Numbered from the whole stretch's first letter, positions 11,461 through 59,127 are shown. The stretch: 59,127 bases of DNA, filler included, from Jimgerdemannia flammicorona (GCA_003990765.1; 2 parts of 2 records of this genome joined end to end with filler, not necessarily neighbours in it), one strand, 5' to 3'. A program made the numbers and translations. Notes: generated by a model from the sequence alone, not told the origin.

Positions 11461-11479
11461 CACATTTTACTTCTCTTAT

Positions 11480-12690: not shown

Positions 12691-12701
12691 ATAGGGGTAT
12701 T

Positions 12702-16720: not shown

Positions 16721-16776
16721 TTTTCAGCTTAAAAGTGAGGGATTCATCTTGAATCACCAGCCAATAGGCACCAAGT

Positions 16777-18287
16777 TGTCATGTAGTGGTCACTGAGTCC
16801 TTTAAATATGCCAGATTCTCTTCAAGGTGTATCTCTTAGACTAACTCAAGTTTGTTATAAGTAAGTTCTTATTGGAGTACCTTTCTAAGGTCTTATAGTC
16901 CTCAAACTTCTTATTTTTAACTATCTTGTTATCTCTTAGATTGCTTGCAAGGAAGTGTGTATAAGTGAAACCAGAACTGACTTTATTTCAGAGGAAATAA
17001 GAGGGGTATTTATACAAAATATAATTCAATGGTTGCTAAGATATAAAGCTAAATATAAATTCCAATAACTAAAACTACTAAATTCCAGGGTCAGCACTGA
17101 TGGTTGTACAGGTTCAGGATGCTGGTATAATTCAGTATCACATCAGAATACCAGTGCTGGAACAATTTTGCATCACCTCAGAATGCCAGTGCTGGCATTA
17201 TCCAGTGTTACATCAAAATACTAGTACTGGCATTATTTAATATAACAAAGAACTTAGAGCAGAAAGTTCAGGATCATGGGGACTTCATCATTATTATTAC
17301 TAAAGGAGATAAGATCTGCAAATTCATCATTTTTGCATGTTTCAATGTTACACAGGATGATGTCATCACCAATGATGTCATCACATTCAGTGATAGGAAA
17401 ATCGGGAGCTCTCCAATCTATGAGGTTCTCTTCCACAAAATAAGGGACAAATGTGGAGTCTTGGGGAGGTCTAACCTGGATGCTTGGGTCTTAGAATACT
17501 GAGATCAATCCTTACAGGAATTGGTCTGGGTTGTTCTGAAGGATGGGGTGCCAGAAGTCTTCTACCTTATCACTATTGAGAGTGATAGTGGACTGGGCTT
17601 CTGTAGCCACCCTGGCTTCTAGTGCATTGATATGGCAGGATAACAGGTCTCTGAAATCTGAGACTCTAACATACTCCAAGTTAGGGATCAACCATGGTGC
17701 ATGCCTGAAGATCTGATAGATCTTCTTAGCTGTCCTTGCCTCACATATGTCTATGGGAGTGGCATCTTGTAGCTCTTGAGGGCTGGCCTGTGGGAACTCC
17801 TGACAGAGGAGGTTTCCTATTTTGTACTTCTGCCATATTTGGAGGCATTCGGTAGCAATGGTGATCCTTGTTTCTATTTCACAATGGTAGAAAATGAAGT
17901 GATAGAGATCTGCAGTACTCAGGTTAATACTAGGAGTCCTTCTTGAGCAGGTCCTCATGACTCTTCTGATGTCTTGGAACATCCTTTCTTCGACTGAGAT
18001 ACCTTGGTGGTTCCTTGACCTTGAGGTTTGGCAGGTAGCAGGTATTTCATTTGTGGTAAGTCTTTGAGCTATTTTGGGATTGGTAGTTCTTGTTGGTTGC
18101 TACTACTGTAGTTTCTTAATCCTTCTTTTATATTTTTCAGGATGCTTATGCTGTGGTCATAATGACTCACAGTTGGTCATCATTGCTCATCTCATATGCT
18201 GTATAATCTTCTTATACTCCAATCTGGTGGCTTGCAAAGAAAGGCTGTCTCCTGTGCTGATGTCATCATTCTGGGGTCACTGTTACA
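16777..18287 (-). repeat. 5' LTR of gypsy element
   Basis: TGTCATGTAGTGG...TGTTACA on + strand; followed on the minus strand by the PBS. Confidence 0.95.
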
Positions 18288-18498
18288 ATCTGTATATATA
18301 AGGTCAAGGATCCCAGATATGTACTTTAATCATTCTTTGAATGGTCACTGGGATGCTTTATTTGTCATATAATCCTTACAGAAACTATCATATTGATATA
18401 TTATCAGTAATCCTCTGACAGATTCACTTCTTATTATATATTCAAGGCTCATCTTACTGATATATCCTAAGTATTAATATTACATATTAGATGCATCA

Positions 18499-20787: not shown

Positions 20788-23700
20788 GTCACTTGGACTC
20801 TGCTATTTATTACCTGTCTATTAAAAATTTTACAGTTTACCCTCCCACTATCTGATCCCCATAGGGGTGCCACTCCTCCTACCTACACAAATAAAGACCA
20901 CTTTCCTACCCGCAACCCCAACCCTCTCCCCACTCTGCCTACAGATTTGTTCCACCAAATGATACCTTTGACCCCTCTTCAACCCCCAACCCAGCCACCA
21001 GTCCATCAAGGTGTCTTCCATAAGGCTACACTACCTCATCAGCCTGACCTCGGAGCCAAGTTTCCTCCCATTCTCAAAAACAAATAACCAGTGACTGGCC
21101 AGCCTCACCCAAATGGCCAAAGTCCAACCTAACATCAGCCATTCCTTCCCCACCCCCCCCTCCAGTCTGCCCCTTAAATCCTCCCAATGCCCCTGCACAC
21201 CAGCTCCCCTACACACTACTCCCAGATGGTCTCCAATGTTCTGCCAAAAGGTACTAAGTACCTCACACTCTCCTAGCCAATGTTCAGGTATCTGTACATA
21301 TCCCCCTTCCTGCCCTACATTATAACACTCTTTACAGTCAAAGCAGTCTCCCTCAATAAGATGACCAGAGTGGAAGTTGAGTATGACATTTCACCTCAGC
21401 ACACACCACCAGACCACCCAGTATGTACTTCAGTGGCAGCCACCTCCTCACCTTGGCACTCCAGGCCCAAATGCTATACTAGTCCTACTCCTTATCGATT
21501 CCTACACCCTGCTAACTGCTAGGCCACAGATTCTGGCCTGGTCTCCATTGGCATTCAATCCCATCACCAATGTCAAACTCAATTAAGCGAATGCCACCTA
21601 GTAACACTTGGTCCCATCTCTACATCACTGGGTCCCAAGCCTCCTCTCCTTTATTTCTCTGTCACCTAATTCCAATATAGTATACCCCCTCTACCACTCC
21701 CCACCAGAAGCCTTTGCATCACAATTGTCCAGAGTTCTGAAGGCCCACAAGTACTAGGAGATCACCCATTGAACCCCTCGGAGAGGACCTCATCTCCCAG
21801 ACTTTCTACAATAGGGGAACCCAACCACCCCCTCTCAACTCCACTGCTCTCTTCAGTCACCAAGCTCTCAAGCAGTGTAGCCTCTTAGGAAAGTTGACCA
21901 GCCCAAGTCCCCCACTCACCACTGGTAAGGACAAGACCTCCCAGCTGATCTGACTCCACCTTCCAGCCCAGATCCACCCCTTGGCCAGCTTCATCAATTG
22001 CTTCACCACCCAAGCTAGGAAGTCCAGATGATAAGCCAGATACCATACCTTCAGCAGCCAATAAACATTCAGAATCGAAACATGTCCTGCCAGAGACAAT
22101 TGATGGCCCCCCCAACTCCACAGGGCCTCCTCCCAAATACCAACCTGCTGCTCCCACCAAAGTCTGGGCAGAACTGACCCAAATACTGACAGATAGATAC
22201 CCAAGTACCATACCATCTCACCTGCAGGGACAATTGCACTAATAATCTCCCCACCCACTAGACCATTGCCTAATACTATTGTTTCGCACTTATGCTAATT
22301 AAGCCTAGTCCCAGAGTTCACCTTATACCACTCCACTGTTTTCATGAGCTTCTCAACATCTACAACTGATCTCAGACTGACCACTATGTCATCTGCAAAT
22401 GCCCCTACTTTCCACCCAATGCCAAAGATAGAGAGCCCCACTATCTTCTGCCTAATTCTGTCCATGAAGGGCTCCAGAGACAAAGCATACAAAATGGGGG
22501 ACAGTGGGTCCCCCTGGGGCACCCTCCTACCCAGGGGAAATGCCAACCCTCTATGTCCATTACACATGAGTGCCACTCTACTTCCTTCCAGTAGGCTGAC
22601 CATGGCAGTTCTGAACTGTTGTGGGACTCTAAACCTATCCAAAACTTTTACCAACCAGACCTATTGCACTCAGTCATAGGCCTTCTCCTGGTCCAAAAAG
22701 ACCAGATGCCCATCTAGTCCACTGGCTTATACCCCTTCAATAACTCCATACACCCATACTGTGCTATCTCTGATGAGCCAGCCTCCAACAAAGCCCTGCT
22801 GCTCCTCACCCAAGACTTACTGGACTATCTTTTGCAACCTTGTGACCACCACTTTGGTAACCAACTTTCTGTCCATATCCAGTAGCATAATCGGCCTCCA
22901 GTTCTTCCAGTCCTCTCAGCTTCCTTTGTTCTTATAAAGTAATGTCACCAACCCTAGATCCTGTTCTCCCACCCACCTCCCCATCAGTAGAATCCAATCA
23001 CACAGTGCCATCATCTCACCCAATATTCCAGAGACTCCCACCATCCTTTTCCAGAAGTCCCAGGGCAGACCATCCTCCCCAGGCACCATACCTAAGATTG
23101 TCACAGCAAGAACCTGATGGATCTCCTCCTCTAGTACTGGCAGTACTAGGTCACTCAATCCATCTGCTCAGGTAGGGTGCCAATCCTCCAATACTTGATC
23201 AATGTCCTCAGCATCTGCCCCACCCTCCTCCTCACTCCACAATCTACTCCAATGCTCCTTTAATGATCCAAGAATGTCTTATACCCCATGTACTAATGAA
23301 CCATCAGCATTAAGCACCCCCCACCTTTGCTGCACCCTTCTCACCTGAAGGGTCCTTATAAGAAACTTTGAGGGCCACTCTCCTTCCTCCAGCCCCTGCC
23401 AATGAAGCCTTGCTGCCAGACCCTGGACCCTTACCTCTTCCTCATTCCACAGTACCTGTTATAGTTCAGCTACCTCCATTCTTAACCTTATCAATCGCCA
23501 GTCCTCCTCTCCCTCCAATGTCACCAGTCTTACCCTATCCTCCAAGAGTCTAGATAGTCTACTAGATGCCCACCACACCTGCCACCTCCTCTGCCTCCCC
23601 GCCTCCATACCAGCCTCACTCCAGAAGGCCCTGGCCATCTCCTTCATCCTCATCAACCAAATATCAACTGTGACACCTTCCTGCCTCCAGTACTCTACCT

Positions 23701-37506: not shown

Positions 37507-40500
37507 TTAGTAGAGGGCGAAACTTGCCTGATAACACCTATTGCTGCTCAGTCTCTCCAGATCGATTTTAGTTAAATAACGACTGGCAGAACCGTTGACA
37601 AAAGTAAACTCAGATTCTTCAATCTCACGGTGAATTATATTAAGATGCTTTGCAGCTTCTTCATTCAGCCACTTCGCATTCGCAATATCCATCTCTATAT
37701 CTTCAAGATCTCTCAACACTTCATCAATTGTCGGTCGCATTTCAGGGTCAGAATGCCAGCATCTCTTGTAGACATTCAAATATTCAATAGGCGTGCCGGG
37801 AATTGGTTCTTCGCGCAATCCAACAGAGGCAGCAGCAAAAGGCGAATTTTTTGCTGTTCCACGAGGACAATAAGTTGTAGTAAGCTGCCAGAGAAGCGTT
37901 CCAAGGCAGTAAATGTCAGATTTTTGGGTGAGTTGTTCATCCGGATCAATAGCTTCGGGTGGAAGGTATTCCATTCGACCATACGTATCGCCACCAAGTC
38001 CACGGAAATGCTCCACTGTTTTGCCAGTCCCGATGTCGATGATCATTGGGTTCATTCTGTTGGTACTGAGAAACACAATATTTCCTGGGTGCAAGTCATT
38101 GTGGACCAAGCCAGCTTTGTGAATCATTTGCAATCTTCGAGTAATCTCTGCAGCAATTTGCCATACTAGTGCCCATGAGTTTGGTGGAGATTCGTTAAGA
38201 AGTTGTGTAAGGTTGCCACCAGCTGCATACTCCATCACCAAAGCATATGACCCCTTATCGTCCTGCGATAGTCCTACAACTGCTGGAGTTGGTGCTCGGC
38301 CAATATTGTTGCGCAGTCGAACATAGATATTGAGTAGCAACTGATACAGACAAAAATGCACAGCACCGTTAATCCAACATTAGATAACGAGATAAATAAT
38401 CAGCATACAGCTGTAACAGAACGATCTAGACACACCTCATTTCGAAGTTGATCTAATACATGATCACTTCCTTTCAACATCTTCAATGCAAAAACCTTAT
38501 CTATTCCAACGTTCACCTTCGCTTTGTATACTTTGGAAAATCCACCTTCACCTAACTCATCGATCTCGGTGAATTTGTCAAAAGGTATCCAAACTATAAA
38601 TGTGGCAAGTTCGTCAATTTTGAGCATGGCTAAGAATTCCTTGAGCTTTTTGTCATCATTGGGAAGGCCGGACGTAAGTTTCGACATGACATTGAAATCA
38701 GATTGCTCGGAATATTTCCGGATTTGGTCAAGAGTATTTGCAACTGGGAGGTTATCTTGAAGATAAAGCGAGAAGCCTGAAGCTTCTCCTTCATAACCTA
38801 GCGAACATGAACATGCAATGGTCATGAATTGGTTTCAAGCGTTGGTCTAAAAATAACAGTTTGCACAGTGCCGGCATACCTTGGACATACAGCTTCGCCA
38901 ATGTGGTGTTCCGCTTTAATACATTACCGAATAAGCATAATGCCTCGTTATTAATTGAGTTGTCTGTAAATGATTAATATCAAATGAGCAAATATTTCCG
39001 CGGGAAAAGAGGGAACACGTCACAAAGCAGAAAGCAACAATTTACACAATGTCAACGGACCTCCTAGATTAAGTGATGTCAGGGTTGTGTTCCGCCTCAG
39101 AGACCGACCTAGAACGCGTAGACCCTTGTCACCAATCTCATTCTCTAAAGACGAAAAGGAATGGGTGAATGAGGACCAACATGGTGCAGGGATGCGAAAA
39201 ACAGATTACATAGTCAAATCATACTATAAATATTCAGCAAAGTCAGGGTGGTGTTCTTCTCCAAAGCATCGCCCAATGCGATCACTCCTTCGTCGCCGAT
39301 TTTATTCCCTGAATAGAAGATGGTGGATAACTAAACAAGTAGTAACTTAGCCCACAGCCATAAACAGCAAGTCACAAAAAGGAAGACACACTGTCAAGAT
39401 TCATCACCGTCAGGGTCTTGTTCTGCTTCAGAGACCCCGACAGTGCAAGTGCTCCCTTGGCTCCAATTTTGTTTCCTTAAAATGTACAGGGGATAGATGA
39501 GCAGATGGATGAGCAAACAGCAGAGGGCACACGTCCAAAAACTATCGCACAGATATATACAACTGTTCACACATACTGCTGAGATTCAGCACAGCCAGGG
39601 TGGTGTTCAGGTTCAGAGAACTGGCAAGTGCATGCACTCCCGAATCTCCAATGTTGTTGTCTGAAGATGAACAGTGGATGCATGAGCTAATTCAAACGGG
39701 AGTAGGAGTTCAAATCACAGCTGTAAATAACTTTGTACAGAGTTCAAACGTACTGTCAAGGTTTAGTGCAGTCAGGGTCGAGTTCTGCTTCAGAGCCTCG
39801 GCCAGTGCATGTGCTCCCTCAGCGCCAATTTTGTTATCTAAAAACGAACAGGGTATGGATGAACAAAACCGCAGAGGTCGCAATTGAGGATATGTAAAGA
39901 ACAGTTCACACATACCACTAAGCTTCAGCGTCGTTACGGTGACGTTCCGCTTAAGAGAATCGGCCAGTGCGAGCGCTCCGGAATTGCCGATATTGTTGTC
40001 TGCAAATGAACAGTGTATGCATGAGTAAATTAACACAATCGTGAGTTGAAATTCATCACACAGCAGCAAACACCGTTTTCAATTATTCTCATAGCTCAAA
40101 CATACTGTCGACGTTCAGGGCAGTCAAGGTCGTATTCTGTTTCAGTGACTCCGCCAGTGCTCGTGCTCCCTCGTCGCCAATTTTGTTCGCTACAAACGAA
40201 AAGGAGATGGATGAGGAAACATGGACAGGGCACTAGTTCGAATTCAAACAACAACTGCAAAGCAACAATTGGCACAATTCAAACGTACAGTCGAGATTCA
40301 TCGTAGTCAGGGTGGTGTTATATTTTAGAGACTCGGCCAGTGCTCGCGTTCCCGCATCGCCGATCCTGTTGTCTGAAGATCAACGTGGGATGGTAGGCAA
40401 ACACACACAACTTGTGAGGTGGAGCTTGTCACACATTTATGAACAGTTCACACGATTTAACCTACATCCGAGATTCAACCCAGCCAGGGTGGTATTCTGC

Positions 40501-43500
40501 TTCAAAGCTTCAGCGATTGTACCCGCTATTGCATCGGTGATGTTATTTTCTGAACATAAACGGAGGACAGATGAGCAAACATTCAAAATATTGTGTTGTA
40601 ACTCGTCACGCAACTGCCAACATACTGTCTAGGTTCAGGGTACTCAGAATCTGGTTCTTCTTCAGGGAATTGATCCGCTTGAGTGCTTCCACGATACCAA
40701 TACCGATGAGCAGGGACGGTTAACAAAAAAGAACAAATCGTGCGATGAAACTTAATACAAAAACTACAAACAACAGGTCACATAGTCAAACGTACTTTCA
40801 AGATTAAAGGCCTTGTTGCGATCCAGCGATTTGGTCACTGCGTCCTGTTCCGTCTTGCTGATTTTGTTATCTGCAGATGAACAGGAGAGGATCAGCAAAC
40901 ACGCAAAGGTCATGAGTTATATGGCTGCAATTAGCAGTATAAACATACACGTTAGAGTCAGAACAGTCAAGGTCTTGTTTTGCTTCAGAGACTTGTCCAA
41001 TGCGAGTACTCCCATGGTGTCAATGATGTTCCCTAAAGATGAATCGAGGACGGATGAGAAGACAAGCAGAGATAAAATTGAAGCTTGTAACAACAGTTCA
41101 AATATACCGCTGAGATTCAACTCGGTTAATGCTGTGTTCTGTTTAAGAGACTCGGATATGGCAAGAGCTCCCTCGTTAAAAATACGGTTCCCTAATGGAT
41201 GGATAGGCAATAATGCACAAGAAGTGAATTAAAACTTCTAACACAGCTGCAACAACAGTTAACATACATGCAAGTTTGAGTGCAATAATGGTCATGTTCT
41301 GTTTCAGAGTCTCTGCCAGTGCGACTGATCCCTGCGCGCCAATTTTATTTCCTAATAATGAACATGCAAACATCCTAAGATACTGATTTGGAACCAAAAT
41401 ACAGCTGCACACAACAGTTCACAGAATTCAAACATACTATCAAGATTCATCACAGTCAACGTCGTGTTCTGCTTCAGAGCCTCGGCCAATTTGAGAGCTC
41501 CATTTGCGCAAATATTGTTCGCTGAAAATGACCGGGGAGAAAACACCCATAGATTGTGAGTTAGAACTCATCACAGACGGTTAACAACGGTTCACGCAGT
41601 TCATACATACAGGCGAGATTCATCTCGATCAAGGTCGCGTTCTGAATCAGAGACTCAGCCAGCGCGATCGCTCCGTCAGTACCAATCTTGTTTCCTTAAA
41701 TTAACAGGTTATCGATGAACAAACGCCCACTTGTCATGAGTTGGATCTTATCAAACGGCCGCACTTTACAAAGTTCAAACATACTATCAATATTCAAAGT
41801 AGTCAGGATCGTGTTCTGCTTCAGAGATTTAGCCAGCACGAGTGCTCCCTCAGAGCCAATCTTGTTTCCTATATATGGGCAGGTGATCCATGAGCAGACA
41901 CCCACTCGTATTGAGTTAGAACTGATCGCACGGCCGCAAACAACAATTCAAAATACCGCCAAGATTCAACGCAGTCAAGGTCGTGTTCAGTTTAAGAGAA
42001 TCGGCCAGCGCTAGTGCTCCTTGAACGTCAATATTATTTTCTAACAGTGTATCGTTGAGGAAACACTCATAGGTCATGACTTGGAATCTATCATATGTCT
42101 ACAACCTACAGTTCACAGAATTATAACATACCGCCAAGACTCATCGCAGTCAGGGTCTTGTTCTGCTTCAGAGACCGGGCAAGAGCACGTGTTCCCGAAT
42201 CACCGATAAAATTTTCTGGAGATAAACCGGGGATAATTGGGCAAATACAAACATGAGTTGGAGTTCATCACGCAGCTGCGAACAAAGTCCACAGAGTTTG
42301 AACGTACTGTCGACGTTTAGCGCAGTCATGGCCGTGTTCTGCTTCAGAACCTCGGCCAGTGCGTGTATTCCCTCTATGCCAATTTTGTTCGCTATGAACA
42401 AAGAGGGTTTGGACGAGGAAACACATATAGGTCGTTAGTTGGAACTCGTCACACAGTTGCTAAAAACACTTAACAAAGCTCAGACATACATGCAAGGTTC
42501 ATCGCAGTCAGCGTCGTATTCTGAATCAGAGACTCGGCCAGTGCGATTGCTCCCTCATCATTAATGTTGTTCACTAAGGATGAAGAAGGGATGGATTGAG
42601 AAAAATAAACAAGATGTGAGGTGGATCCGTCTCACAGCTGCAAACAACAAGGAATACAGGTCAAACATACAGGCGAGATTTATCGCAATAAGGGTCGTGT
42701 TATACTTCAGAGACTCGGCCAATGCGAGAGCTCCTTCAGCGGCAATATTGTTCGCTAAGAATGAAAAAGTAAACACATATAAGTCGCAAGGTGGAAATCA
42801 CCGCAAAGCTGCAAAAACCAATTTACACAGTTCATACATACAGTCGAGATTCATCACAGTCAGCGTCGTGTTTTGCTTCAGACACTCGGCTAGCGCCCGA
42901 GCTCCCATATCGCCGATCTTGTTGTCTGAAATCCAACAGGGAATGGATAAACAAATACACACAGCTTGCGAGTTGAAGATTATCAAACAACAGTTTAGAC
43001 TAATAAAACATACTATTGAGATTCAGTAGAGTCAGGGTGGTGTTTTGCTTCAGAGATTCCGCGAGTTTGCAGGCCCCTGCATCGGCGATGTTATTGTCTG
43101 AATATGAAGAGTAGATGAATGAGCTAACATGCACAGGAGAGTTGGAACTTATCACGCAGCTGCAAAGAACAGTTCACCATACTGTCGAGATTTAGCAAAA
43201 TCTGAGTCGCCAAATCGAGCACTTCCACGGTAATAATAAAGACGAAGAATAAATGAGCCGGAACACATCACGCAACTACAAACAACTTTCAGAATGTTGA
43301 AACGTACTGTGGAGATTCAGCGTAGCGTTTCGATCCAGAGATTCGGCGAGTGTCCGCTGTACTACTTTGCTGAGTTCGTTGTCTGAAAATGAATAGCGAA
43401 TAGATGAGCAAAAATGCAAAGGTTGTCAGTTGGAACCCAATGACAGCGGCAAACAGTTCACACAGTTTAAACATACATTTTACATTCAGCACTGTTAGGG

Positions 43501-45193
43501 TTGTGTTTAGCTTCAGACACTCGACCAGTGCGAGTACTCCGTTGGTGTCAACGTTGTTCCCTAGTGATGAACAAGGGAACACAGGCCGTGAGTTGGAACT
43601 CAGCACAGTGCTGCAAACAACAACAAATAAATTCAAACATACCGCTGAGATTCAGCGAAGTTAGTGCTGTGTTCTGTTTAAGAGACTCGGCGATAGCAAG
43701 TGCTCCCTCAGTAAAAATGCGGTTCCCTTGAGATATAAATTGGATGGATAAGCGATCATTCAAATGAAACATCTGACAGAAATACAAAAAACAGTTGACC
43801 CAGTTAAATCATACATGCGAGATTCAGCACAGTCAGGGTCGTGTTCTGCCTCAGAGACTCGGCCAGTGCAACTGCTCCCACCGCGCCAATCTTGTTTCCT
43901 AAAAAAGAACATTGGATGGATATACAAATATCCTCAGTTCGTGAGTAAAAGATATTCACATTGTGGCACATAATAGTTCGCACAGTTCAAACATACTGTC
44001 AAGATTCATCACGGTCAACGTAGTGTTCTGCTTCAATGATTCGGCCAATGCGAGCGCTCCCTTATAATCAATGTTGTTCGCTAAGCGTAAAAGGAGATGG
44101 ATGAAGAAACGCTTACAGGTTGGAACTCAACGCACAGCTGCAAATGATATAGTGAAACATACATGCGAGATTCAGAACAGTCAGGGTCGTGTTCTGCTTC
44201 AGATACTCAGCCAGTGCGAGTGCTCCTTCACTTCCTATGTTGTTGGCTAAAAAATTAAAGGACGGATGAGGTACCACGGGCAAGGCGTGATATGAAACGA
44301 TCATGTAGCTATAACAACATTTCCCACATTCCAAACCTACTGTCGAGATTCAGAGCTCTCAGGGATATGATCTGCATCAGAGATTCGGCCAAAGCACGTG
44401 CTCCGTCGCCGCTAATTTTGTTCCCTATAATTTACAGAGTACGGATGAGCAAACATGTATATACAGGTCGCGGTTTGGAATTCATCTCGCATTTCAGCAA
44501 CCAGCGGTTACACGATTTTAACTGACATCGTAGATCCAACTCAGGCAGTAGTGTATTTTTCAGAGCCTCAAGCAGGAGGGGGATATCCTTATCGCCAATA
44601 CGTATTTCTATAGAATAAATGCAAAATGGTATTTAGATACGGCTTAGCACAAACGGTAACAATTTTTTGTACGGTAAATTTAAAAGAGGCAAGTGAAGCT
44701 ACTACGAAAAGTCCCCGCTCTGGTCATATTATTTGAAGGAAACCCAATATAGTGTCCTAGAAGTTGTTGCTAACTACGTACTTGTAAATTGCGTGAGATC
44801 CAAAACCATATTGGTATCCGGCGTGACCTCCCAGGAAGGAGCTTTCTCCATGGTGTTGGTCGGAAAACTGACTCCGGGAACGGGCTCTACAATCAGCAAT
44901 CTGGTGTCATGTTCATGCTTGGCTGCTTGGACTGAGGCCAGTTCCTTGGAGTTGGTGATATCTCCCACACCCAGTCCCTGGCTGACATCTTGGAAAGGGT
45001 TTGTGTTCACGTCATTAACCTGCAAGATGCCTTCTGGTCCGGGTTTAACCCTTTGAATAGGTGGCGTCTCCACCGAATTGACATGGGGCTTTAGGATTGG
45101 TTTAAATAACGAAGGAACCTCCTTAAACTTGAACAAGATGGGTCTAGATAACTTCAGCTTGACTGGAGTATTACGGTTGTCATTCTGTTCCAT
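37507..45193 (-). CDS. Multi-exon LRR (RI/NLRC3-type, 32-34 repeats) + tyrosine-kinase-like non-RD protein kinase, ~1420 aa
   Basis: GT-AG exons mapped by eye. N-terminal: 44782-45193 (frame open to ~45343, true start uncertain). LRR: 44527-44607, 44341-44424, 44163-44246, 43997-44080, 43815-43898, 43643-43726, 43477-43560, 43308-43382, 43014-43097, 42842-42925, 42671-42754, 42490-42573, 42308-42391, 42132-42215, 41957-42040, 41785-41868, 41611-41694, 41438-41521, 41268-41351, 41108-41191, 40949-41032, 40796-40870, 40466-40549, 40289-40372, 40106-40189, 39916-39999, 39754-39837, 39577-39660, 39392-39475, 39225-39308, 39061-39144, 38880-38963. Kinase: 38436-38797, 37507-38340. Repeat consensus xNxIGxxGAxALAESLKQNTTLTxLNLx. 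Kinase motifs WIPF, GEGGFSKVY, ALK, MEYAAGGNL, HNDLHPGNI, DIG, YLPPE, SDIYCLG, CWHSDPEMRP. No stop seen in the joined frame. Confidence 0.92.
38880..44607 (-). repeat. Tandem array of ~170-bp exon+intron units (one LRR each)
   Basis: 34 periodic slots. Introns (~75-110 nt) are themselves related, with recurring GTATGT..TGTGAACTGTT, CAGCTG and GAGTTCCAACTC-like motifs. Confidence 0.95.
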
Positions 45194-47242: not shown

Positions 47243-50200
47243 TTTTTTTTTTTTTTATAGTCACTTGGACTCATCCTTTATTACACCCATCTATCCTATA
47301 TAAATACAATAAACCCACCCCCTACCCAATCCCCCTAGGGGCTCTCTCCTACTCCTTCTCGATGAAACACCACTCTATCGAATACAATTCCCACCCTCCC
47401 ACCACTCTGTATGCATATCCTTGCCACCAAACTGTGCCACTGCCCCCCTGAGAGACCCCAACCTATCCACCATCCAGTCAACAGATCTCCCAACAGCTCC
47501 TCCCATCTTACAACCTTCTTCTGCAGGCTTAGCTGCTACTCCTCCTCAAACACAAATAGCCAATGTCCCACCAGACCCACCCAAACTGCTAACACCCACC
47601 CAACAGTGAGCTAACTATCACCCACCCCCCCCACCAGCCAAGATCTCAAGTTCTCCCAGTAATCCTCTTCACCCACTGGCCTGTGCTCTACACCCAGTCT
47701 ATTCCCTATTTCAACCCAAAAGTCCCCCAAAACCTCACACTCCCCCAGCCAATGTTCTGGCATCTGCACCAAACCCCCAACTTGCCTTACATTGTAACAC
47801 TCCTCACAATCAAAACAGCCACCATCCACCAGATGCTCAGTGTGGAAATTCAGCATGATGTTCCTCCACAGTATTTGCCACCACACTACCCAGAACTTGG
47901 GGGGAAGCCACTGCCACACCTCAGTGCTCCAAGACCAGATATCAGCCCAGTCCCACTCCTCACCAATCCTGACTATCTGCCAACTGCTCAGCCAAAAGTC
48001 TTGGCCAAGACCCTGCTGACACTCCACTCTATTCCCAATATCAAAAGTAACAAGTGGAGCACCCCCCAGAAGCAGTCTATCCCATCATCACATATGTGGA
48101 CCCCACAACACCTCCCCCTCATTGCCTTGCCAGTATAGACCAATTCGGTGTGCTCCATCAACCACTCCCTACTAAAAGCCCTTAAATCGCAGCCACCGAA
48201 TTCCATTGAGCCCTACCAAAGAGAGTAGATCTCCTAAGGACCCTTGGGGGGAGGTTCTCAACTCCCACACCTTCTATATCAGAAGTTCCCAACCTCCTCC
48301 CTATAGTTCAGCTGCTCTCTTCAGCCACCAGGCTTGCAAGCAGTACAACCTCTTAGGGAAATCTACAAGACCAAGACCTCCCCTGTCCACCGGCATCACA
48401 AGAGCATCCCAACTGATCTGAGACCTCCTCCCTGCCCAAATCCAATCTCTAGCCACCTTCATCAGCCTCTTCACCACCCAAGCTGAGAAGTCTAGGTAAT
48501 ATGCCACATACCACAGCTTGGGAAACCAGTATGTATTCAGAATCAATACCCACTCTGCTAGAGAGATATGGTAGCCTCCCCAACCTCGAAGGGCCTCCCC
48601 CCAAATAGTCACCCTACTCTCCCACCATACTCATGGCAAGACAGAACTATATATAGTGAGGAAGATGCCCAGATACCATACCACCTCACCCATAGGGACA
48701 ATTGTTCAAATAATGTCTCTACTCACCAGTCCATTCTCTAGCACTATAGTCTCACACTTATGCCAGTTGAGCTTTGCCCCAGAGTGAACCTCATACCATT
48801 CCACTGTCTCCTGAAGTGCCTTGACATCCACCACAGACCTAAGGCCAACCACCATATCATCTGCAAAGGCCCCCACCTTCCACACAATGCCATAGATAGA
48901 GAGCCCCACTACCTTCTGGCAAATCCTATCCATTAATGGTTCCAATAAGAGAGCATAAAGAATAGGGGACAAGGGGTCCCCCTGAGGAACCCCTCTTCTC
49001 AAGATAAATACCTGACCACAGTGACCATTACACAACAGTGCTGCCTGACTGCCCTTGAGCAGATTTACCATAGAAGCCTGAAATCCAGGAGGAACACCAA
49101 TATGATCCAACATCTTGTCTAGCCAAACCCACTGGACCCAGTCATAGGCCTTCTCCTGATCCAAAAAGACCAACCTCCCATCCAGGCTGCAAGCCTGGGC
49201 CCCTTCAATGACACCATGCACCCAAGAAGTTCTATCTCTAATAAGCCTTCCTCTAACAAAGCCCCACTGCTCCTCCCCCAGCACCTGTTGGGCAACCTTC
49301 TGCAGCCTTGTGATAACCACCTTAGTTACCATCTTCCTGTCCATATCCAAAAGCATGATTGGCCACCAGTTCTTCCAGTCTTCTCTCCTCCCCTTGTCTT
49401 TGTACAATAAAGCCACTAGCCCGAGGTCCTGCTCCCCAACCCATTCACTGCTCTGAAGAACATGATCACAGAGAGCAGTCATCTCCCCCAGAATGCTGGA
49501 GACCTTGACCATCTTCTTCTAGAAGTCCCACAGTAGTCCATCCTCCCCTGGTGCTATTTCAGTTTTAGTTGCTGCAAGGATACTCAGGACTTCCTCACCT
49601 CGCACCAGCAAGGCCAAGTCATCCAGTCCAGCCACTTGTGGCAGCCTCCATTCTCCTAATGCCTCTTCAATAGCCATCTCATCAGTACCCCCTTCATTCT
49701 CACTCCACAAACCCTGCTATCTCTCTTTCAAAACCCCTAGGATTCATTGCTGCCATGCACCATATCCCCATCAGCATCGAGGACTCCATCCCACTGATAT
49801 CTCACCCTCCTAGCATTGAGCAGATGGGATAAATATCTAGTAGGCCGCTCACCCTCCTCAAGCCCCTGCCACCATAGCCTAGCAGCCATACCTTGCATAT
49901 GTACCTCTTCCTCTTCTCTCAATACCTGTTGCAGTTCTAATACCTCCAATCTAATCCACACTAACCTCCAATCCTCCACTCCATCAGAAGTAAGCAAACC
50001 AGTCCAATCCATCTGCAATCTCCTCAGCCTGCTGGAAGTACACCTCGTGCACTTCCTCCTTCTTCTCCCAACTTCTCTCCCAGCCTCTCCCCAATAGACC
50101 CTCGCAGCCTCTTTCAATCTCATCCACTGGATACCCACTGACAAACCCTCATACTGCCAGTGAGAAACTTTTGCCTGAATGTCCTCTACCCATGAATCCC

Positions 50201-53119
50201 ACAACCCCTTCTCAGCCAGTAGGGAGGAGTTGAGGTGCCAATGTCTGGGTCCATCTCCACTTCCCTCAAACTGCCCCTGTCCCAACAGTCCCCAGTGATC
50301 AGACCATGGGCACCATTCCATCTTCAATACCTTCCAGACATCAGACCCCCAGCATTCCGCCATCAGAATCCAGTCAATCCTTATACCCAAGCCATTCACC
50401 CAATACATATAGACCCTAGAGTCACCCCATTGCATTCTACCCATATCCCCTAAGGAGCTCAACCTCTCTACCTCCTCTCATGCATCCAGGCCTCCACTTC
50501 TCCCTCCTGCACTCCTCCCACCATCAGTGTGGTCCAGACGCTGATCCTGAACCATATTAAAGTCCCCCCCAATCACATTGACCCCTTCTGCCAAGAGAAT
50601 ACCCTCCTCCAGTAGCTCCTCAATTCAAGCAATCCTCTCACCCCTAACTGCAGGGCAGTAGCAAGAGCCAACCCTCACTGACTCTCACCCTGGCCACTGC
50701 CAATCATCCCAGACCAAACGGTCACCCCAGCTCCTGATTCCCTCCAAGTCACCTCTACCCTTCCTCACCAGAATCGCCACTTTTCCAAACTAAGCAAAAG
50801 CCCTGCCCCATTCCTTAGTCCACTTCGCCTGATCATCCTCATCCTCACACTATACATCCTGTAGTAAAAAGAGATCAGCCTCCAATTCTTTGAGCCAAGT
50901 AAAAATGTTCTTATGCCATCCAGACCCCCTCAGCCCATTCACATTCAAAGAGAAAATGTTAGTTGTACTGTTCATAAGGAATAATGTTAGAAAGTGATCC
51001 CATCCTCTATAAGTCCACATTCAGCTCCTCCTGCACTAAGTCTAATTCATGTTCAGTAGCTAGTTCCCTTTCCCCAGCTTCCCTTACCTCTAATCCTCCC
51101 AGGAGTTCTACCATTGTCTCATCTTCCCTCTTCTCAAATTCCTCTCAATACTCCAGACAGGCCTCCCTTCAGAGCTGCAAACCATGCCACTCAGCCCAGC
51201 AGTATATTGCCTGCTCACCTGCAGCCACCACCAGCTCTGCCTTCCTCACCTCATCAACCTCATATCCCTCCTCCTTTAAGAGGATTGCAAGAATCTCCCC
51301 CTTCAGTGCCTCCACTACTCCCTCACCATGCAGAATCCTCTCCCAGTGCCCCTCAGGCATAACCTGCAAGTCCACTTCTCCCAATGTATCAGCCGCAAGA
51401 TTATCCATCAACTTGCTCATCCACAGCAAGTTTCCTATCTCCTTCCCTCCAGGAGTCCCTGGCCATCCTGCATCCAATATCATGATGTCAGCACCCACAC
51501 TGGCAGCCTCATCCCACTCCTCCTCAGGGACATCCACCAGCTCATCCTTGCTAGCTGCTACCACCTGGCCCCCTTTCGCCACATCAGGGACCCCAAAATG
51601 CACTTGCTGGGCCCCCTTTATCAGCACATCCTCTGACACCCTTCTCTTTGCAGCCAGGCCCCTCCTGATCAGAGGGGGGGGAGTGGAGTCCAATTCCAGC
51701 TCCCAGACCTTGAAGGTGCCATCAGCAAAAGGGTCCTTGCTCAGCACCTTCCCATCTCCTTCCTTGCCTACCTCCATCTCCCCTACCCCTTTACTAGCCC
51801 AGACACTGGCCTTGATGCCCCCAGATACCTCAGCCCCAACTGTCTTCTTCTTTGCCTCGACTGTCATACTTGCCAGTAGCTCCCTCTGCCTCCTGCACCC
51901 CTGTGCCTGCTCCCACTGCCCCTTGTCCATGCAGATTCGCTTCCCCTCCACAACCTCCAGATGTGTTGACTCCTCATACATCTTCCAGGCCCTCACCCTC
52001 CTCTCTATAGCTCCACTCATCTCCTTCAGCACCTCCAACAAGTCCTCCTCCTCCTCCTCACTCCCCTTCACCCTCGACACCTTACAGATGAATGCCCCCC
52101 ACATCAGCACAGAGGCCAGTCACTTGCCTTCCCTGTGGCCTCCTTTCCTGCTAGCCGAATCCTGACATCAATGTTGTCCATCCTGATCATCATCCCCTCC
52201 CACACTTGAAAGCCAATGTCCACCATATCACCATACTCAATCATCACCTCCTCCACCCTCTTCCTAGTCTCCTCCTCGGTCACTATGGGCATCCCCTTCA
52301 CCAGAAGCTGCACCACTCTGGGGTCTCATCGCAAGCGCCACACCATGTGGACCACCACCTCCCCAACCATGACTCCTCTTCAGTGTCTCATCCAGTGGAC
52401 CAGCCTTCTCAAATCCCACCTTAACTCCCTCCAGACCCTTCAAGAACTTCACTGAGGCCACCCCAGCTACCTGCTTCGAGACAAGCCCCAGAATCATCCT
52501 CACCATTACCACCAAGCCCTGGAAGCACAAGGTCACTGCAAACTCTGAGATTGACTTCTTGAGCAATGGGGTCACCACCAGCCCCATTACACCATCTGCT
52601 AGGTCCCTCTTCCCACATCAGGAACCCCTGCCCCCCCTGGCCATCAGCCGTCATATCTCCTTTTTTTTCCTGATTCCCCATCACTCTCTCATTAACAGTC
52701 ACACCCCCAGCCACAGCACCTCTGGCCCCTACACCTGCACTCCCAGCCGGAGCACTGCCCTCCCTCCCAAGGCTTGCCTTGCCTTTCCCCTCAGCAGTAC
52801 CAGCCCTATTACCAGCTAGCCACCCACTCCCCTTAATCTTGTCAGCGAAGCTCAGGAGACTAGATCTTCCCCCATTGCCACTGGACACTGGTTCCCCTCC
52901 AGAGCCTTTTCCATTCTTCGGTCCTCTAAAAGCCCCCATCCCCAGGCCATAACATAACCCCTTCCCACCTGCTGCCAGTCAAAGGCCCTAGATCTACCTG
53001 ACCTAGTACACACACCTGTATGGTCATTGCTCTCTATATTGCTAGTCACCTTTTACTAAAAACATTGTCAAAAGTGTTGTCTGAGTCTTGTGTCACCTGA
53101 ATGTTGCTGGTGAAAGGTA
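47243..53119 (-). mobile_element. Full-length LINE copy D inserted antisense in ORF1 of LINE E
   Basis: Poly(T) 47243-47256; 16-bp TSD GCCTTTAGAGGGTCAA (47227-47242) / GCCTTTGGAGGGTTGA (53120-53135). RT ORF piece 48706-49512 with GVPQGDPLSP and FADD; ORF2 start ~50975; ORF1 ~50990-53050. Confidence 0.94.
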
Positions 53120-53265: not shown

Positions 53266-53620
53266 TAGTGCTCTCAATGAATCGAATCAAGGGTCCAATT
53301 CAATTCAATTTGAAGTTTAATTCGAACCTTAATTTTCAAAATATAATAACTCGACAAAAACTCATTCAAATTTAATGTATTTTAGCTTGTTAGATTCACC
53401 ATATTAATGTAATTCTAACAAGCTAAAGTACGTTAGATTTGGATGAGTTTACGCTGAGTTATTGCATTTTGAAAATTAGGGTTCGAATCAGACCCTCAAT
53501 TTGATTTGACTTTTGATTCGATACAAATTGATTCGAATTGAAAAATCCCCAATTCGATTTGACTTGTTTAACTCTCAATTCGATTTGATTTGAATTGATT
53601 TGACTTATTTGGGAGCACTA
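53266..53620. mobile_element. 355-bp hAT-type MITE
   Basis: TIRs TAGTGCTCTCAA / TTGGGAGCACTA; exact 8-bp TSD GCTGTGGG (53258-53265, 53621-53628); internal ~75-bp inverted arms. Confidence 0.93.
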
Positions 53621-56600
53621 GCTGTGGGGAAGGACAAGGCAAGCTTTGGGAGAGGGAGGTCCTCAGGCTGGGAGTATGAGTGTAGGGTCTGGAGGTGTTG
53701 TGGCTGGGGGTGGGACTGCTGATGGAGGTGTGATGGGAAATCAGGAGAAAAAACAGTGGGGCTGGGGCTACCAATTCGGAAAGGGGACCTAGCCAATAGT
53801 GTGACAGAGCTAGTAGTGGCACCATTACTCAAGAAGTTGGTTTCAAAGTTTATGGCTATCTTGTACTTCTGGGACTTGGCAGTGATGGCAAGGATGGTCC
53901 TAGGGCTTATCTTGCAGCAGGTGACTGAGGCTGCCTTGGTGAAGTTCCTGAAAGGGCTGGAGGGGGTGGAGGTGGGCTTTGAGGAGATGGGCCCACTGGA
54001 TGAGGCAATGAAGACTAGAGTGGTGGTTGGTGAAGTAGTGGTCCCTATGGTGTGCTGCCTTAGGTGGGACCCCAGGGTGATATAGCTGCTAGTCAAAGGG
54101 GTGCCTATGGTATTGAAGGTTGAGACTAGGAGGAGGGTAGAGGAGGTGGTGGCAGAGTATAGTGATGTGGTAGATATCAGCTTCCAGGTGTGGGAGGGGA
54201 CAGCAATCAGGACAGGCAATGTGGATATCAGGATTAGGCTGACAGAGAGAGAGGCCACTGGAAAGATGAATGACTGGCCTTCAGTGCTGATGTGGGGGGC
54301 TGTTGTCTGTAGGGTGTTAAGGGTGAAGAGGAGTGAAGAGGAGGAGGAAGACTTGTTAGAAGTGCTGGAGGAGTTGAGTAGTATAGTGAAATGAAGGGCA
54401 AAGGCCTGGAAGCTCTTTGAGGAGACAACATATCTGGAGATTGTGGAGGAGAAGTGTATCTGCATGGACAAGAGGCAGTGGGAGTGGGCACAGGGGTGCA
54501 GGAGACAGAGGGAGCTATTGGTAAGTATGAAAGTAGAGATGAAGAAGAAAACAGGTGTCTGGGGGTATTGAAGCCAGTGTCTGGGCTAGTAAAGGAGAAG
54601 GGGAGATAGAGGCAGGCAAGAAAGGAGCTGGGAAGATACTGAGCAAGGACCTCTATACCAATGGCACTTTCAAGGTCTGGGAGCAGGAGTTGGATACCAC
54701 CCCCCCCCCTCTTATCAGGAGGGGCCCAGCTGGGAAGAGAAGGATGATAGAGGATACACTGATGCAGGGGCCCAGTGAGTACACTTTGGGGTCCCTGATG
54801 TGGCAAAAGGGGGTCAGGTAGTAGCAGTTGGTGAGGATGAGCTGGTGGATATCCCTGAGGAGGAGTGGGATAAGGCTGTCAGTGTAGAAGCTGACACTAC
54901 AATGTTGGATGCAGGATGGCCAGGGACTCTGGGAGGGAAGGAGGTGGGGAACTTGCTATAAATGAGTAAGGTGATGGATAACCTTACAGCTGAGGCATTA
55001 GGAGAAGTAGACCTGCAGGTAATGCCTGAGGAGCATTGGGTGTAGATTCTGTATGATGAGGGAGTGGTGGAGGTACTGAAGGTGGAGATTCTTTCAATTT
55101 TCCTAGAGAAGAAGGGATATGAGGTTGATGAGGTGAGGAAGGCTGAGCTGGTGGTGGTTGCTGGTGAGCAGGCAGCATACTGTTGGACAGAGTGTCATGA
55201 TTTACAGCTCTGGCAAAAGGTCTGTCTAGAGTATCATGAAGACTTTGAGGAGTGAGAAGATGGGGTGATGGTAGAACTTCTGGGAGGGTTGGAGGTACAG
55301 GAAGCTGGAGAAAGAGAACTAGCTGCTGAACATGACTTGGACTTGGTGCAGGAGGAGCCGAATACAGACTTGTAGAGGATGAGATCACAATATATCATTA
55401 TTTCTTATGAACAGTATAACTAATATTTTCTCTTTGAATGTGAATAGGTTAAGGGGATCTGAGTGACATAAGAACATTTTTACTTGACTCAAGGGATTAG
55501 AGGCTGATCTCTTTTTACTACAGGATGTCCAGTGTAAGGATGAGGATGATTGGGTGGAGTGGACTAGGGAATGGGGTGGGGCTACTGCTTGGTTTGGAAA
55601 AGTAGTGATTCTGGTGAGAAAGGGTAGAGGAGACTTGGGGGGAATAAGGAGCTGGGGTGATCATTTGGTCTGGGGAGATTGGCATCAGCTAGGGTGGGAG
55701 TCAGTAAAGGTTGGCTCTTGCTACTACTCTGCAGTTAGGGGTGAGAGGACTGCATGGATTAAGGAGCTGTTGGAGGAGGGTATTCTCTTGAAGGAAGGGG
55801 TCAATGTTCTTGGGGGGGACTTTAATATGGTTTGGGATCAGCATCTAGACAGAACTGATGGAGGGAGGAGTGCAGGGGGGAGAAGTAGAGGTCTGGATGC
55901 ATAGAAGGAGGTGGAGAAGCTGAGCTCCTTAGGAGATATAGACAGAACACAGTGGGGCAATACCAGGGTCTACATATATTGGGTGAATGGCTTGGATACA
56001 AGGATTGACTGGATTCTGACAGCAGAGTGCTAGGGTTCAGATGTTTGGAAGGCATTGGAGATAGAGTAGTATCCATGGTCTGATCACTGGGAACTATTGG
56101 GGCAGAGGCAGTTTGGGGAGAGTGAAGATGGACCTGGACATTGGTGCCTTAACTCCTCCCTGCTGGCTGAGAAGGGGTTGTGGGATTCATAGGTGGAGGA
56201 CATTCAGGAGAAGGTTTCTATCTGGAGGCATGAGGGTTTGTCGGTGGGTGTCCATTGGATGAGATTGAAGGAGGCTGTAAGGGTTTATTGGGGAGGGGCT
56301 GGTAGAGAAGCTGGGAGATGGAGAAGAAAGTGCACAAGGTATACTTCCAGCAGGTTGAGGAGATTATAAATGGATTGGGTGAATTTGCTTACTTCTGGTG
56401 GGGTGGAGGATTGAAGGATAGAGTGGGCAAAATTGGAGATAGTGGAATTGCAACAGATGTTGAGAGAAGAGAAGGAGACTCATATGTGAGGTATGGCTGC
56501 TAGACTAAGGTGGCAGGGGCTTGAGGAGAGTGAGTGGCCTACTAGGTGCTTATCAAGACTACTCAAAGCTAGGAGGGTGAGATATCAGTGAGATAGAGTC

Positions 56601-59127
56601 CTAGATGCTGATAGAGATATAGTGTATGGCACACAACAAATCTTAGGGGTTTTGAAGGAGAGATGGTAGTGATAGAGAAGGGGGTACTGATGAGGTGGTA
56701 ATTGCAGATACTCTAGGAGAGTGGGGGCCACCGCAAGTAGCCTGACTGGGTGACTTGATCTTACCAGTACAAGGAGAGGAGATCCAGAGTGTCCTTGCTG
56801 CAACTAAACTTAGAACAGTACTTGGGGAGGATGGATTACCATGGGACTTCTGGAAGAAGATGGTAAAGGTCCCCAGAGTTTTGGGTGAGATGGTTGCTCT
56901 CTGTGACCATGTTCTTCAGAGTGGTGAGTGGGTTGGAGAGCAGGACCTCAGGCTGGTGGCTTTATTGTACAAAGACAAGGGGAGGAGGGAAGACTGGAAG
57001 AACTGGAGACTGAACATGCTTCTGGATATAGACAGAAAGATAGTGACTAAGGTGATTGTCAAAAGGCTACAGAAAGTTGCCCAACAGATGCTGTGGGAGG
57101 AGCAGCAGGGCTTTATTGGGGGCAGACTTATAAGAGATGGGACTGCATGGGTATATAGTATCATTGAAGGGGCCCAGACTTGTGGACTGGATAGAAGATT
57201 GGTCTTTTTGGACCAGGAGAAGGCCTATGACCAGGTACAGCAGGTTTGACTGGGCAAGGTGTTGGATCGAATTGGTGTTCTCCCAAGATTTCAGACTTCT
57301 ATATTGAATCTTCTAGAGAGCAGTCGGGCAGCAATAATGTGTAATGGTCACCATGGTCTGGTGTTTTTCTTAGGAAGAGGAGTTCCTCAGGGGGACCCTC
57401 TGTCCCCTATTCTCTATATTCTTTCATTAGAGCTATTGATGGATAGGATCCACTGGAAGGTAGTAGGGCTCTCTATTTATGATATAGTGTAGAAGGTGGG
57501 GGCCTTTGCTAATAATATAGTGGTTGGACTTGGGTCTGTGGCAGATGTCAAGGCACTTAAGGAGACAGTGGAATGGTATGAGGCTCACTCTGGGGCAAAG
57601 CTCAACTGGTATAAGTGTGAGACAATGGTGCTAGGGAATGAGTTAGTAGGTGGGGATGTTATTGGAATAATTGTCCCTACTGGTGAGGTGGTGCAGTATC
57701 TGGGTATCTTCCTTTCTATATATGGTTCTGTCTTACTATAAGTGTAGTGGGAGAGCAGGGTGGCCATTTGGGGGGTGGCCCTTCAAGGTTGGAGAGGCTG
57801 TCATATCTCTCTGGCAGAGTGAGTGTCAATTCTGAATATATACTAGTTCTCCAAGCTGTGGTACATAGCCTATCACCTAGACTTCCCAGCTTGGATGGTG
57901 AAGAGGCTGATGAAGGTAGCTAGGGATTGGATTTGGGCATAGAGGAGGTCCCAGATCAGTTGAGATACTCTTACAATACTAGTGGTCAGGGGAGGTCTTG
58001 GTCTTGTGGATTTCCCTAAGAGGTTGCACTGCTTGCGAGCCTGGTGGTTGAAGAGAGCAGTTGAACTACAGGGAGAGAGTTGGATACCTCTGCTGCAGAA
58101 GGTATAGGAGATGAGATCCTCCCCCTGAGGGTCCTCCAGAGATCTGCTCTCTTTGGTAGGGCTGAATGGAAATCAGCAGCTGCAGTTTAAGGGCTTTTGA
58201 TGGAGAGTGGTAGATGGAGCACACTGAATTGGCCTGCACTGGCAAGGTAATGAGGGGGAGGTGATGTGGGGGCCTGGTATGTGGCAATAGGATAGACTGC
58301 TCCTGGGGGGTGCTCTACTTGCTGCTTTCAATATTGGGAATGGAGTGAAGTGTCAGCAGGGTCTTGGCCAGGATCTTCGGCCAAGTGGCTGGTAGGCAGC
58401 AGAGATCAGTGAGGAGTGGGACTGGACAGGTATCTGGTCTTAGAGTACTGAGGTGTGGGGGTGGCTTCCTCCCAAGTTCTGGGTAGTATGGTGGCAAATG
58501 CTGCAGAGGAATGTTATGTTGAATTTTCATACTAGGCATCTGGTAGATGGTAGCCATTTTGATTGTGAGGAGTGTTACAATGTAGGGCAAGCTGGGGGTT
58601 TTGTACAGATACTGGAACATTGGTTGGGAGAGTGTGAGATTTTGGGGGACTTTTGAATAGAAATAGAGAATAGACTGAGTGTGGGGCAAAGGCTGGCAGG
58701 TGAGGGGGGCTACTGGGAGAACTTGATATCTCAGCTAGTGGGGGGTGGGTGATAGTTGGCTCACTATAGGGTGGGTGTTAGCAGTGTGGGTGGGATTGGC
58801 AGGACATTGGCTTTTTGAATTTGAGGAGGAGTGGTAGATGGGGCTGCAGGAGAAGGTATTAAGGTGGGAGAAACTTTGGGGGATCTGCTGACTGGATGGT
58901 GGGTGGGTTGGGGTCCTCCGGGGGGGTGACATTGAGGTTTGATGGCAAGGATCTGTGAGCAGAGTGGTGGGAGAGCAGAGATTGTATTAGACAAAGTGGT
59001 CTTTCATTAGGAAGGGGTAGGGGGGGAGCCCCTCTAGGGGGATCGGATAGGGGGTGGGATCACTGTATTTATATGAGATAGATGGGTATAATAAAGGATG
59101 GAAGTCTAAGTACATAACTATAAAAAA

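Follow-up and report, generated by a model that had tools for sequence, protein, structure and literature searches.

What, if anything, is encoded in a codon that is cut by an intron in repeat after repeat of the same gene? This question is raised by a gene on the minus strand (45193..37507) of a 59,127-base stretch of DNA from Jimgerdemannia flammicorona (GCA_003990765.1), referred to below as the window, in which 88 bases are N, in two short runs (29518-29561 and 29574-29617). The model of the gene, built from the sequence, consists of 37 exons and encodes a protein of 1457 amino acids, with an N-terminal region followed by 34 leucine-rich repeats (LRRs) of the RI/NOD type and a C-terminal protein kinase. 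The original prediction for this locus held that the codons split between consecutive LRR exons, located before a conserved Asn at a variable position of the repeat, constitute a junction code that forbids some exon pairings by way of stop codons, such that skipping or shuffling of exons would write new residues at the junctions or yield stops; a permutation of the exon order was proposed along with it. The evidence presented below leads us to a more mundane conclusion. We consider it highly probable that this is an ordinary, intact and expressed gene of an early-diverging (Mucoromycota-like) fungus, with an array that arose by unit duplication and with no separate code; the lack of TAA, TAG and TGA at the junctions that are used is the open reading frame of the gene and not a code in its own right.

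Gene structure and junction codons

The coding region (37507..45193; all features of the gene lie on the minus strand) is open along its whole spliced length, with 1457 codons and no stop from the ATG at 45193 to the stop codon that ends at 37507, and all 36 introns, 75-174 nucleotides (nt) long, have GT..AG ends. The 35 introns as far as the kinase are in phase 1, with one base of the split codon before the intron and two after it, and the last intron is in phase 0. Exon 1 (44782..45193) encodes the N-terminal 137 residues and contributes one base to the first split codon; the array of 34 LRR exons, delimited by exon boundaries, splice sites and translations, extends over 38880..44607, with phase-1 introns on both sides of the exons. 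The kinase is divided between an exon with the linker and the kinase start, including the glycine loop and the ATP-binding lysine (38436..38797), and an exon with the main part of the kinase, the C-terminal tail and the stop codon (37507..38340). Exactly 84 nt is the length of 29 of the 34 repeat exons, and the remaining five measure 81, 75, 39, 75 and 60 nt. The layout is modular and frame-preserving, all 34 exon lengths being divisible by 3 and all 35 flanking introns being in phase 1. In the whole window, an nhmmer profile of the 84-nt exons hits 32 places, every one of them in minus-strand sequence between 38883 and 44423.

The 29 units of exactly 28 codons share the consensus NxIGxxGAxALAESLKQNTTLTxLNLx and conform to the RI-type LRR consensus LxxLxLxx(N/C)xLxxxGxxxLxxxLxxxxx. 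When the repeat is numbered L1-x-x-L4-x-L6-x7-x8-N9, N9 and L23 are invariant, I11, G15 and N26 are conserved in at least 90% of the units, and the split codon is x8. The prediction placed this codon at a variable position, and among the 29 regular units x8 is indeed the most variable of the 28 positions (3.22 bits), followed by x14 (2.78), x13 (2.67), x7 (2.63) and x3 (2.52). In the LRR fold, the x positions of the motif are solvent-exposed, on the concave face or next to it, and the hot-spot residue Asp435 of the ribonuclease inhibitor is presumably x8 of its repeat, on an assumed mapping.

How regular are the junctions themselves? The last base of the 34 repeat exons is A in 15, T in 12, G in 7 and C in none; the first two bases are GA in 5, AA in 4 and AG in 1, and AC in 7, GG in 6, CG in 5, TG in 2, AT in 2, CC in 1 and CA in 1. 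Both counts on which the prediction was built (12 exons that end in T, ten that start with AA, AG or GA) are thus matched exactly, and a stop codon is indeed formed at none of the 35 used junctions. The residues encoded across these junctions are S (5), R (5), K (4), G (4), N (4), W (3), Y (3), T (2), D (2), M (1), L (1) and E (1); all the residues that had been predicted are here, and the one omitted is the Met of an A/TG split codon at the 39-nt exon (43221..43183). The claim that every intron precedes the conserved Asn stands for 31 of the 35 junctions, at which an Asn codon directly follows the split codon, and has to be given up for the 81-nt, 39-nt and 60-nt exons and the first kinase exon. 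There is a further restriction on the split codon: no exon of the gene ends in C across all 36 donors (A 16, T 12, G 8, with A in exon 1 and G in the first kinase exon), so that codons for His, Gln and Pro as well as CGN and CTN are barred at the junction position. In general, donor sites are preceded by C less often than by any other base. Some relatives carry His at the equivalent position.

When the exon order was permuted, only 1,379 of 200,000 random orders contained no stop (P=0.0069), with a mean of 3.38 stops, and when the second copy of a duplicated block (see below) was left out, with 23 exons remaining, the same procedure gave P=0.018. Thus, the order is non-random, and the reason is that the spliced frame is open. 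Does the constraint extend to joins that the gene does not use, as a code would require? Stop-forming pairs make up 115 of the 1122 ordered exon pairs (10.2%), in effect the same as the marginal product 12/34 x 10/34 (10.4%). Forward joins between non-neighbours form a stop in 72 of 528 cases, compared with 54.9±12.5 in the null (P of >=72 = 0.10), and single-exon skips in 3 of 32 cases, compared with 3.5±1.3, the null in both comparisons being random orders with no stop at used junctions (2,724 of 400,000 accepted). Unused joins carry stops at the level of chance, and hence there is no sign of selection to keep skipped products either open or closed; selection is visible solely on the junctions actually used. 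It is mechanically true that skipping would create new junction residues and, for some pairs, stops, and the notion that pairings are forbidden by a code is not supported by these counts.

Consecutive splicing and intron retention

A selected junction code could nevertheless have a use, in that regulated skipping or shuffling would produce receptor isoforms in which a binding position carries new residues, and the stop-forming pairs would give kinase-less products or targets of decay. The layout of the gene is suited to such a role: each of the 34 exons is symmetric, with phase-1 introns at either end and a length divisible by 3, so that any skip keeps the frame, and the residue of the split codon is the most variable one of the repeat. 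There is also a precedent. According to passages in Hoss et al. (2019; PMC6642158), human NLR genes have LRR exons that are strictly modular and leave the frame intact, with the border at a fixed position of the beta-sheet; in most NOD and NLRC genes each exon holds a single 28-residue LRR, in NLRP genes each exon of 171 nt holds two repeats, and this modular layout is the precondition for exon skipping, which has been demonstrated for exon 5 of NLRP3. The term 'stop codon' does not occur in the main text of that paper (PMC6642158), and therefore the point about stops at junctions is a small corollary of the layout rather than a described feature of it. On the other side stand the chance level of stops in the unused joins and the contigs of two sequencing runs.

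Two public sequencing runs, X1 and X2, contain 0.46 and 0.32, respectively, of the sampled words of the window, and we infer that they hold complementary DNA because their contigs are spliced at the borders of the model. At the 3' end of the gene, X1 record 2 and X2 record 9 both join 38340 to 38436; X2 record 9 goes on to join 38795 to 38878, which is the model border within two ambiguous bases, and X1 record 2 has 254 more bases past 38795, the placement of which is not listed. At the 5' end, X1 record 6 covers exon 1 (44782-45228, that is, up to 45228) and has 165 further bases, which correspond to the next two exons (81+84). X2 record 9 (2801 bases) has listed pieces at 37693-38340, 38436-38795, 38878-38963, 39576-39660 and 41784-42039. 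The contig stretches between these pieces are 251 and 974 bases long, and the model exons in the same intervals sum to 252 (3 x 84) and 975 (10 x 84 + 75 + 60), the differences being due to one or two ambiguous end bases. By its summed lengths, this contig fits the strictly consecutive joining of 17 repeat exons, and the irregular pair of 75 and 60 nt agrees with it as well.

What the contigs do show is unspliced introns. The 88-nt intron 41869..41956, which has the only GTATTT donor of the gene, is retained: X2 record 9 is gapless over 41784-42039, and X1 record 4 covers 41840-41979. Retention of this intron would shift the frame. Two further introns are run through unspliced in X1 records 3 and 5, the unspliced contigs covering 39309..39391 and 44247..44340. 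Only 2 of the 36 introns, 41033..41107 and 39838..39915 (both minus strand), combine a length that is a multiple of 3 with the lack of an in-frame stop, such that their retention would add 25 or 26 residues and keep the frame; retention of any of the other 34 would stop or shift it. Intron retention and not exon skipping is held to be the prevalent mode outside animals (PMC6142364), in agreement with the unspliced intron in the contigs, and the intron length of the present gene, 75-174 nt, also speaks against regulated skipping.

No canonical exon-skip joint, with the CT..AC ends of a minus-strand intron, occurs among the 15 joints listed of 98. Several of the 15 have extra letters between their sides, and most of the contigs that map to the window are only 90-95% alike (285 of 393 in X1, 158 of 239 in X2); we read the non-canonical joints as paralogue contigs that cross-map over the repeats. 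Taken together with the consecutive joining, these observations make a selected code that acts through splicing very unlikely. Hundreds of contigs that are 90-95% alike map to the repeats (38880..44607), with very high summed depth in some bins; such depth reflects the paralogue contigs and is not an expression level. These contigs suggest that related LRR genes form a large family that is expressed in the organism itself or in similar ones.

Descent of the array and its variable codon

If not by shuffling, how did the array come about? The 34 LRR exons are, in order, 44607..44527, 44424..44341, 44246..44163, 44080..43997, 43898..43815, 43726..43643, 43560..43477, 43382..43308 and 43221..43183; then 43097..43014, 42925..42842, 42754..42671, 42573..42490, 42391..42308, 42215..42132, 42040..41957, 41868..41785 and 41694..41611; then 41521..41438, 41351..41268, 41191..41108, 41032..40949, 40870..40796, 40685..40626, 40549..40466 and 40372..40289; and finally 40189..40106, 39999..39916, 39837..39754, 39660..39577, 39475..39392, 39308..39225, 39144..39061 and 38963..38880. 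The 33 introns of the array (38964..44526, minus strand) are homologous to one another, with a consensus that runs from GTATGTTTGAAC through TTCCAACTCAC, the probable branch site, to TTCATTTTCAG. RNAalifold applied to these 33 introns finds no conserved base pairs, and their likeness is attributable to common descent. Across the array, the plus strand contains seven open frames of 104-154 residues, which match nothing in Pfam and were regarded as antisense artefacts of the repeat.

The pairwise identity of the array introns is 0.594 over aligned sites, compared with 0.558 (1816/3257) at four-fold degenerate sites of the exons and with 0.70 and 0.73 at the first and second codon positions. Hence, introns and silent sites decayed together while the protein was conserved, and the intron identity fits neutral decay since duplication, as judged from the sequence comparison. 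These values also bear on the possibility that the array is decaying or non-functional and that its open frame is merely left over from a recent duplication. That the gene is situated among retroelement copies and has unusual kinase motifs (HND for HRD and DIG for DFG) could be cited in favour of decay. However, four-fold sites have gone down to 0.558 while the first two codon positions hold 0.70 and 0.73, little or no variation is seen at the structural residues N9, L23, I11, G15 and N26, all 1457 codons read through without a stop, and two runs contain spliced contigs; furthermore, DIG is common to the Endogone relative of the kinase (see below) and so is a trait of the family rather than a mark of decay. 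We regard this possibility as exceedingly improbable, and in this respect the prediction of an intact gene under constraint is borne out.

A more specific trace of history comes from the comparison of exons with one another, which peaks at an offset of 15 units: identity is 0.79 for exons 4 and 19, 0.86 for 6 and 21, 0.77 for 7 and 22, 0.71 for 10 and 25, 0.80 for 11 and 26, and 0.82 for 14 and 29. Self-blastn with introns included aligns 40935-41523 with 43463-44082 (72.5% over 630 nt) and 40255-40617 with 42809-43163 (73.4% over 369 nt). The first copy of this internal block duplication is represented by 43463..44082, with 42809..43163, and the second by 40255..41523 (40935..41523 plus 40255..40617). 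The irregular exons are part of the same pattern: the pair of 75 nt (43382..43308) and 39 nt (43221..43183), spanning 43183..43382, is homologous to the pair of 75 nt (40870..40796) and 60 nt (40685..40626) located 15 units away, and both short exons have the unusual acceptor context CGTGGAAG. The junction codons came along with the block: TCG, AGA, TGG, GGG, TAC/TAT and TCG are common to both copies (at the junctions from 3 to 4 through 7 to 8 and from 11 to 12, respectively), and the remaining junction codons differ by point changes. Because the order is collinear and the junction codons were copied with it, we have to conclude that this was duplication of units and blocks and not shuffling.

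The following scenario appears to accommodate these observations in the simplest fashion. The array would have grown by tandem duplication of a unit that consisted of one 84-nt exon and one intron of ~90 nt, and the single phase-1 intron of this unit, located within the codon before the conserved Asn, would have passed its position and phase to every copy. A collinear block of ~11 units would have been duplicated later. Afterwards, the split codon would have drifted or been selected like any other exposed, variable LRR position, subject to two limits, namely that no stop may form at a used junction and that the base before the donor is never C.

Several points weigh against an ordinary gene with no separate code and have to be set against it here. 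The RNA evidence consists of assembled contigs, for which 15 of 98 joints and 16 of 834 pieces are listed, so that rare exon-skipped forms may escape. Among those 16 pieces, no spliced contig covers the exons between 42040 and 44341, and therefore the model in this interval, the 39-nt exon included, is based on the sequence itself and on the homologous exons of the second copy. The permutation null assumes that exons are independent, an assumption that the duplication history violates. Finally, the three bases of the junction codon have pairwise identities across units of only 0.34, 0.31 and 0.31, compared with 0.558 at four-fold sites, and therefore drift alone is insufficient: one has to invoke either diversifying selection or differences that already existed between the founder units.

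Could the introns themselves be a source of this diversity, not through splicing but through evolution? With the intron in the most variable, ligand-side codon, each unequal crossover or unit duplication within once-identical introns would create a hybrid codon, and with it a new residue, and a receptor family would thus diversify faster, at the price of a null allele in about one of ten new joins. The homology of the introns throughout the array, the growth by unit and block duplication, the excess diversity of the junction codon over neutral sites and the many 90-95% paralogue contigs on the repeats in both runs, which suggest a large family, are all in line with this proposal. However, in the one duplication that can be traced, the junction codons were copied unchanged or altered by point substitution, and a hybrid codon can arise only where a duplicated block begins or ends, so that the effect would be small. 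In 5 of 7 related proteins the equivalent position ranks within the top four for variability, and the intron need not be the cause of this. Moreover, an intron identity of ~59% is probably too low for ongoing homologous exchange. All things considered, this proposal is unlikely. Its broadest form, in which a phase-1 intron in the most variable, ligand-side codon serves early-diverging fungi as an evolutionary source of diversity in a large family of intracellular LRR-kinase sensors, we deem quite unlikely; if it were true, each gain or loss of a unit via homologous introns would write a new residue at a binding position, at the same cost of null alleles in roughly 1/10 of the new joins.

Relatives and significance

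Where, then, does an ordinary LRR-kinase gene of this layout belong? The main kinase exon matches Pfam Pkinase with 78.6 bits (cut-off 31.7) and PK_Tyr_Ser-Thr with 76.1 bits (cut-off 23.1), and the motifs GEGGFS, ALK, HNDLHPGN, DIG and PPE were identified by eye in the translation. The catalytic Asp and Lys residues are present, and the HRD and DFG motifs are altered. A non-RD catalytic loop, such as the HND found here, occurs in many immune receptor kinases. The array is connected to the kinase by a linker of ~75 residues in the exon 38797..38436, which on its own gives a weak Pkinase match. A metagenome scan with the kinase exon yielded 7 loci, with 27-32% identity in the best segments plus one 26-residue match at 54%; these were taken for generic kinases. 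Exon 1 has no significant match in Pfam (best E 0.083) and no relatives among the proteins of 241-2000 residues in the protein collection searched.

For the repeats, LRR_6 scores of single-exon translations are 13.6-22.0 bits and that of a two-exon read-through is 21.9, with a cut-off of 23.4; single exons fall just below the cut-off because each of them carries the end of one model copy (positions 13-24) followed by the start of the next (1-11). The query for relatives was an 81-residue read-through of two exons and the open intron between them, of which the intron-derived third is noise. All 59 relatives of this two-repeat stretch carry Pfam LRR_6 (PF13516), and the best are proteins of Linnemannia, Mortierella and Podila (43-50% identity), with animal NLRC3-like proteins lower in the ranking. 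Among solved structures, the repeat profile has its best matches in 5irm and 5irl (E 2.6e-12), which we take to be NOD2. No membrane segment is predicted, the highest mean Kyte-Doolittle value over 19 residues being 1.52, in the linker before the kinase, and the N-terminus is polar; the protein would be expected to be soluble and located in the cytoplasm. No NACHT or NB-ARC domain was detected in exon 1, the scanned repeat translations or the kinase exons. The gene accordingly encodes an LRR-kinase that is not an NLR, although its repeats are NLR-like, and is neither a ROCO kinase nor a receptor kinase of the plant type. By its domain composition, the protein may work as a ligand-binding repeat domain that controls a kinase.

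The best relative of the kinase is a protein of Endogone sp. (P0001; 719 residues), a member of Mucoromycota. It is 50% identical to the main kinase exon over 95% of the query and 43% identical to the linker exon over 86 residues, with an alignment that stops at the last residues of that exon, and it shares the DIG and PPE motifs with the present kinase. Unlike the present gene, which has LRRs there, it has a Peptidase_C14 (caspase-like) domain in its N-terminal part, according to the precomputed Pfam assignments. The comparison hints at domain swapping in front of a common module of linker, kinase and tail. The closest repeats are those of five Mortierellomycotina proteins (P0060, P0061, P0063, P0065 and P0074; about 1000-1170 residues), with 39-50% identity over the two-repeat stretch. 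They show the same 28-residue consensus, and the junction-equivalent position is among the four most variable in 4 of the 5; in contrast to the present gene, their precomputed Pfam assignments include no kinase domain. LRRK/ROCO proteins and plant LRR receptor kinases likewise combine LRRs and a kinase in one protein. However, no Roc-COR was found between the LRRs and the kinase of the present gene, and it differs from the plant receptors by having neither a signal peptide nor a membrane segment and by repeats that are of the RI type instead of the plant-specific or typical types. Among the 12 best-ranked titles of one search of the literature on LRR, kinase and NLR proteins of Mucoromycota there was no paper on such a family, which is no proof that the family is undescribed.

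With human NOD and NLRC genes the likeness lies in the exon layout, which, as far as the published account summarized above goes, involves an RI-class 28-residue repeat, one per exon, with a fixed border in the beta-strand region and preservation of the frame. The present gene is set apart from them by its fungal-type architecture with a C-terminal kinase, the lack of NACHT and the number of its repeats, 34. NOD/NLRC arrays are far shorter than that. RNH1 and the NLRP genes resemble the present gene in the LRR class, in the register of exon and repeat and in growth by exon duplication, again to the extent of that account; exon duplication in RNH1 was reportedly described by Haigis and co-workers in 2002. 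They differ from it in that the present gene has one repeat per exon and no alternation of 28 and 29 residues.

The surroundings of the gene are rich in mobile elements. Minus-strand frames for a zinc knuckle, a dUTPase and a reverse transcriptase lie between direct repeats of 1.5 kb (9610-11114 and 16776-18291; 89.5% identical), and the whole segment (9610..18291) looks like a long terminal repeat retrotransposon that carries a dUTPase. Two inverted copies of ~5.6 kb (47245..52798 and 53617..59127), 81% identical, contain reverse-transcriptase frames, and a third, partial copy of the same element is located at 21780..23140 (72-73%). The ~5.6 kb copies account for stretches of ~50% G+C with a strong G/C skew (-0.4 to -0.5, and +0.4 to +0.5 in the inverted copy). 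Another protein-kinase fragment, at 5286..5690 (minus strand; Pkinase E 6.5e-16), is unrelated to the kinase cassette of the LRR gene.

What does the locus tell us in the end? The junction code alters no view, because any run of symmetric phase-1 exons shows it: the new residues and stops that skipping could produce follow from that symmetry. The layout is of a kind already known, and the gene is a further case of it. It is, however, a tidy example of an array built of exon-plus-intron units, in which the introns are still recognizably homologous and a block duplication can be traced, and it demonstrates that the exon layout of animal NOD/NLRC receptors also occurs in an LRR-kinase of the fungal type. 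If such genes also skipped exons, they would be a fungal counterpart of the splicing of LRR modules in human NLRP3. Furthermore, if the family is large, its members may merit study as candidate intracellular sensors in early-diverging fungi, whose receptor repertoires are little described.

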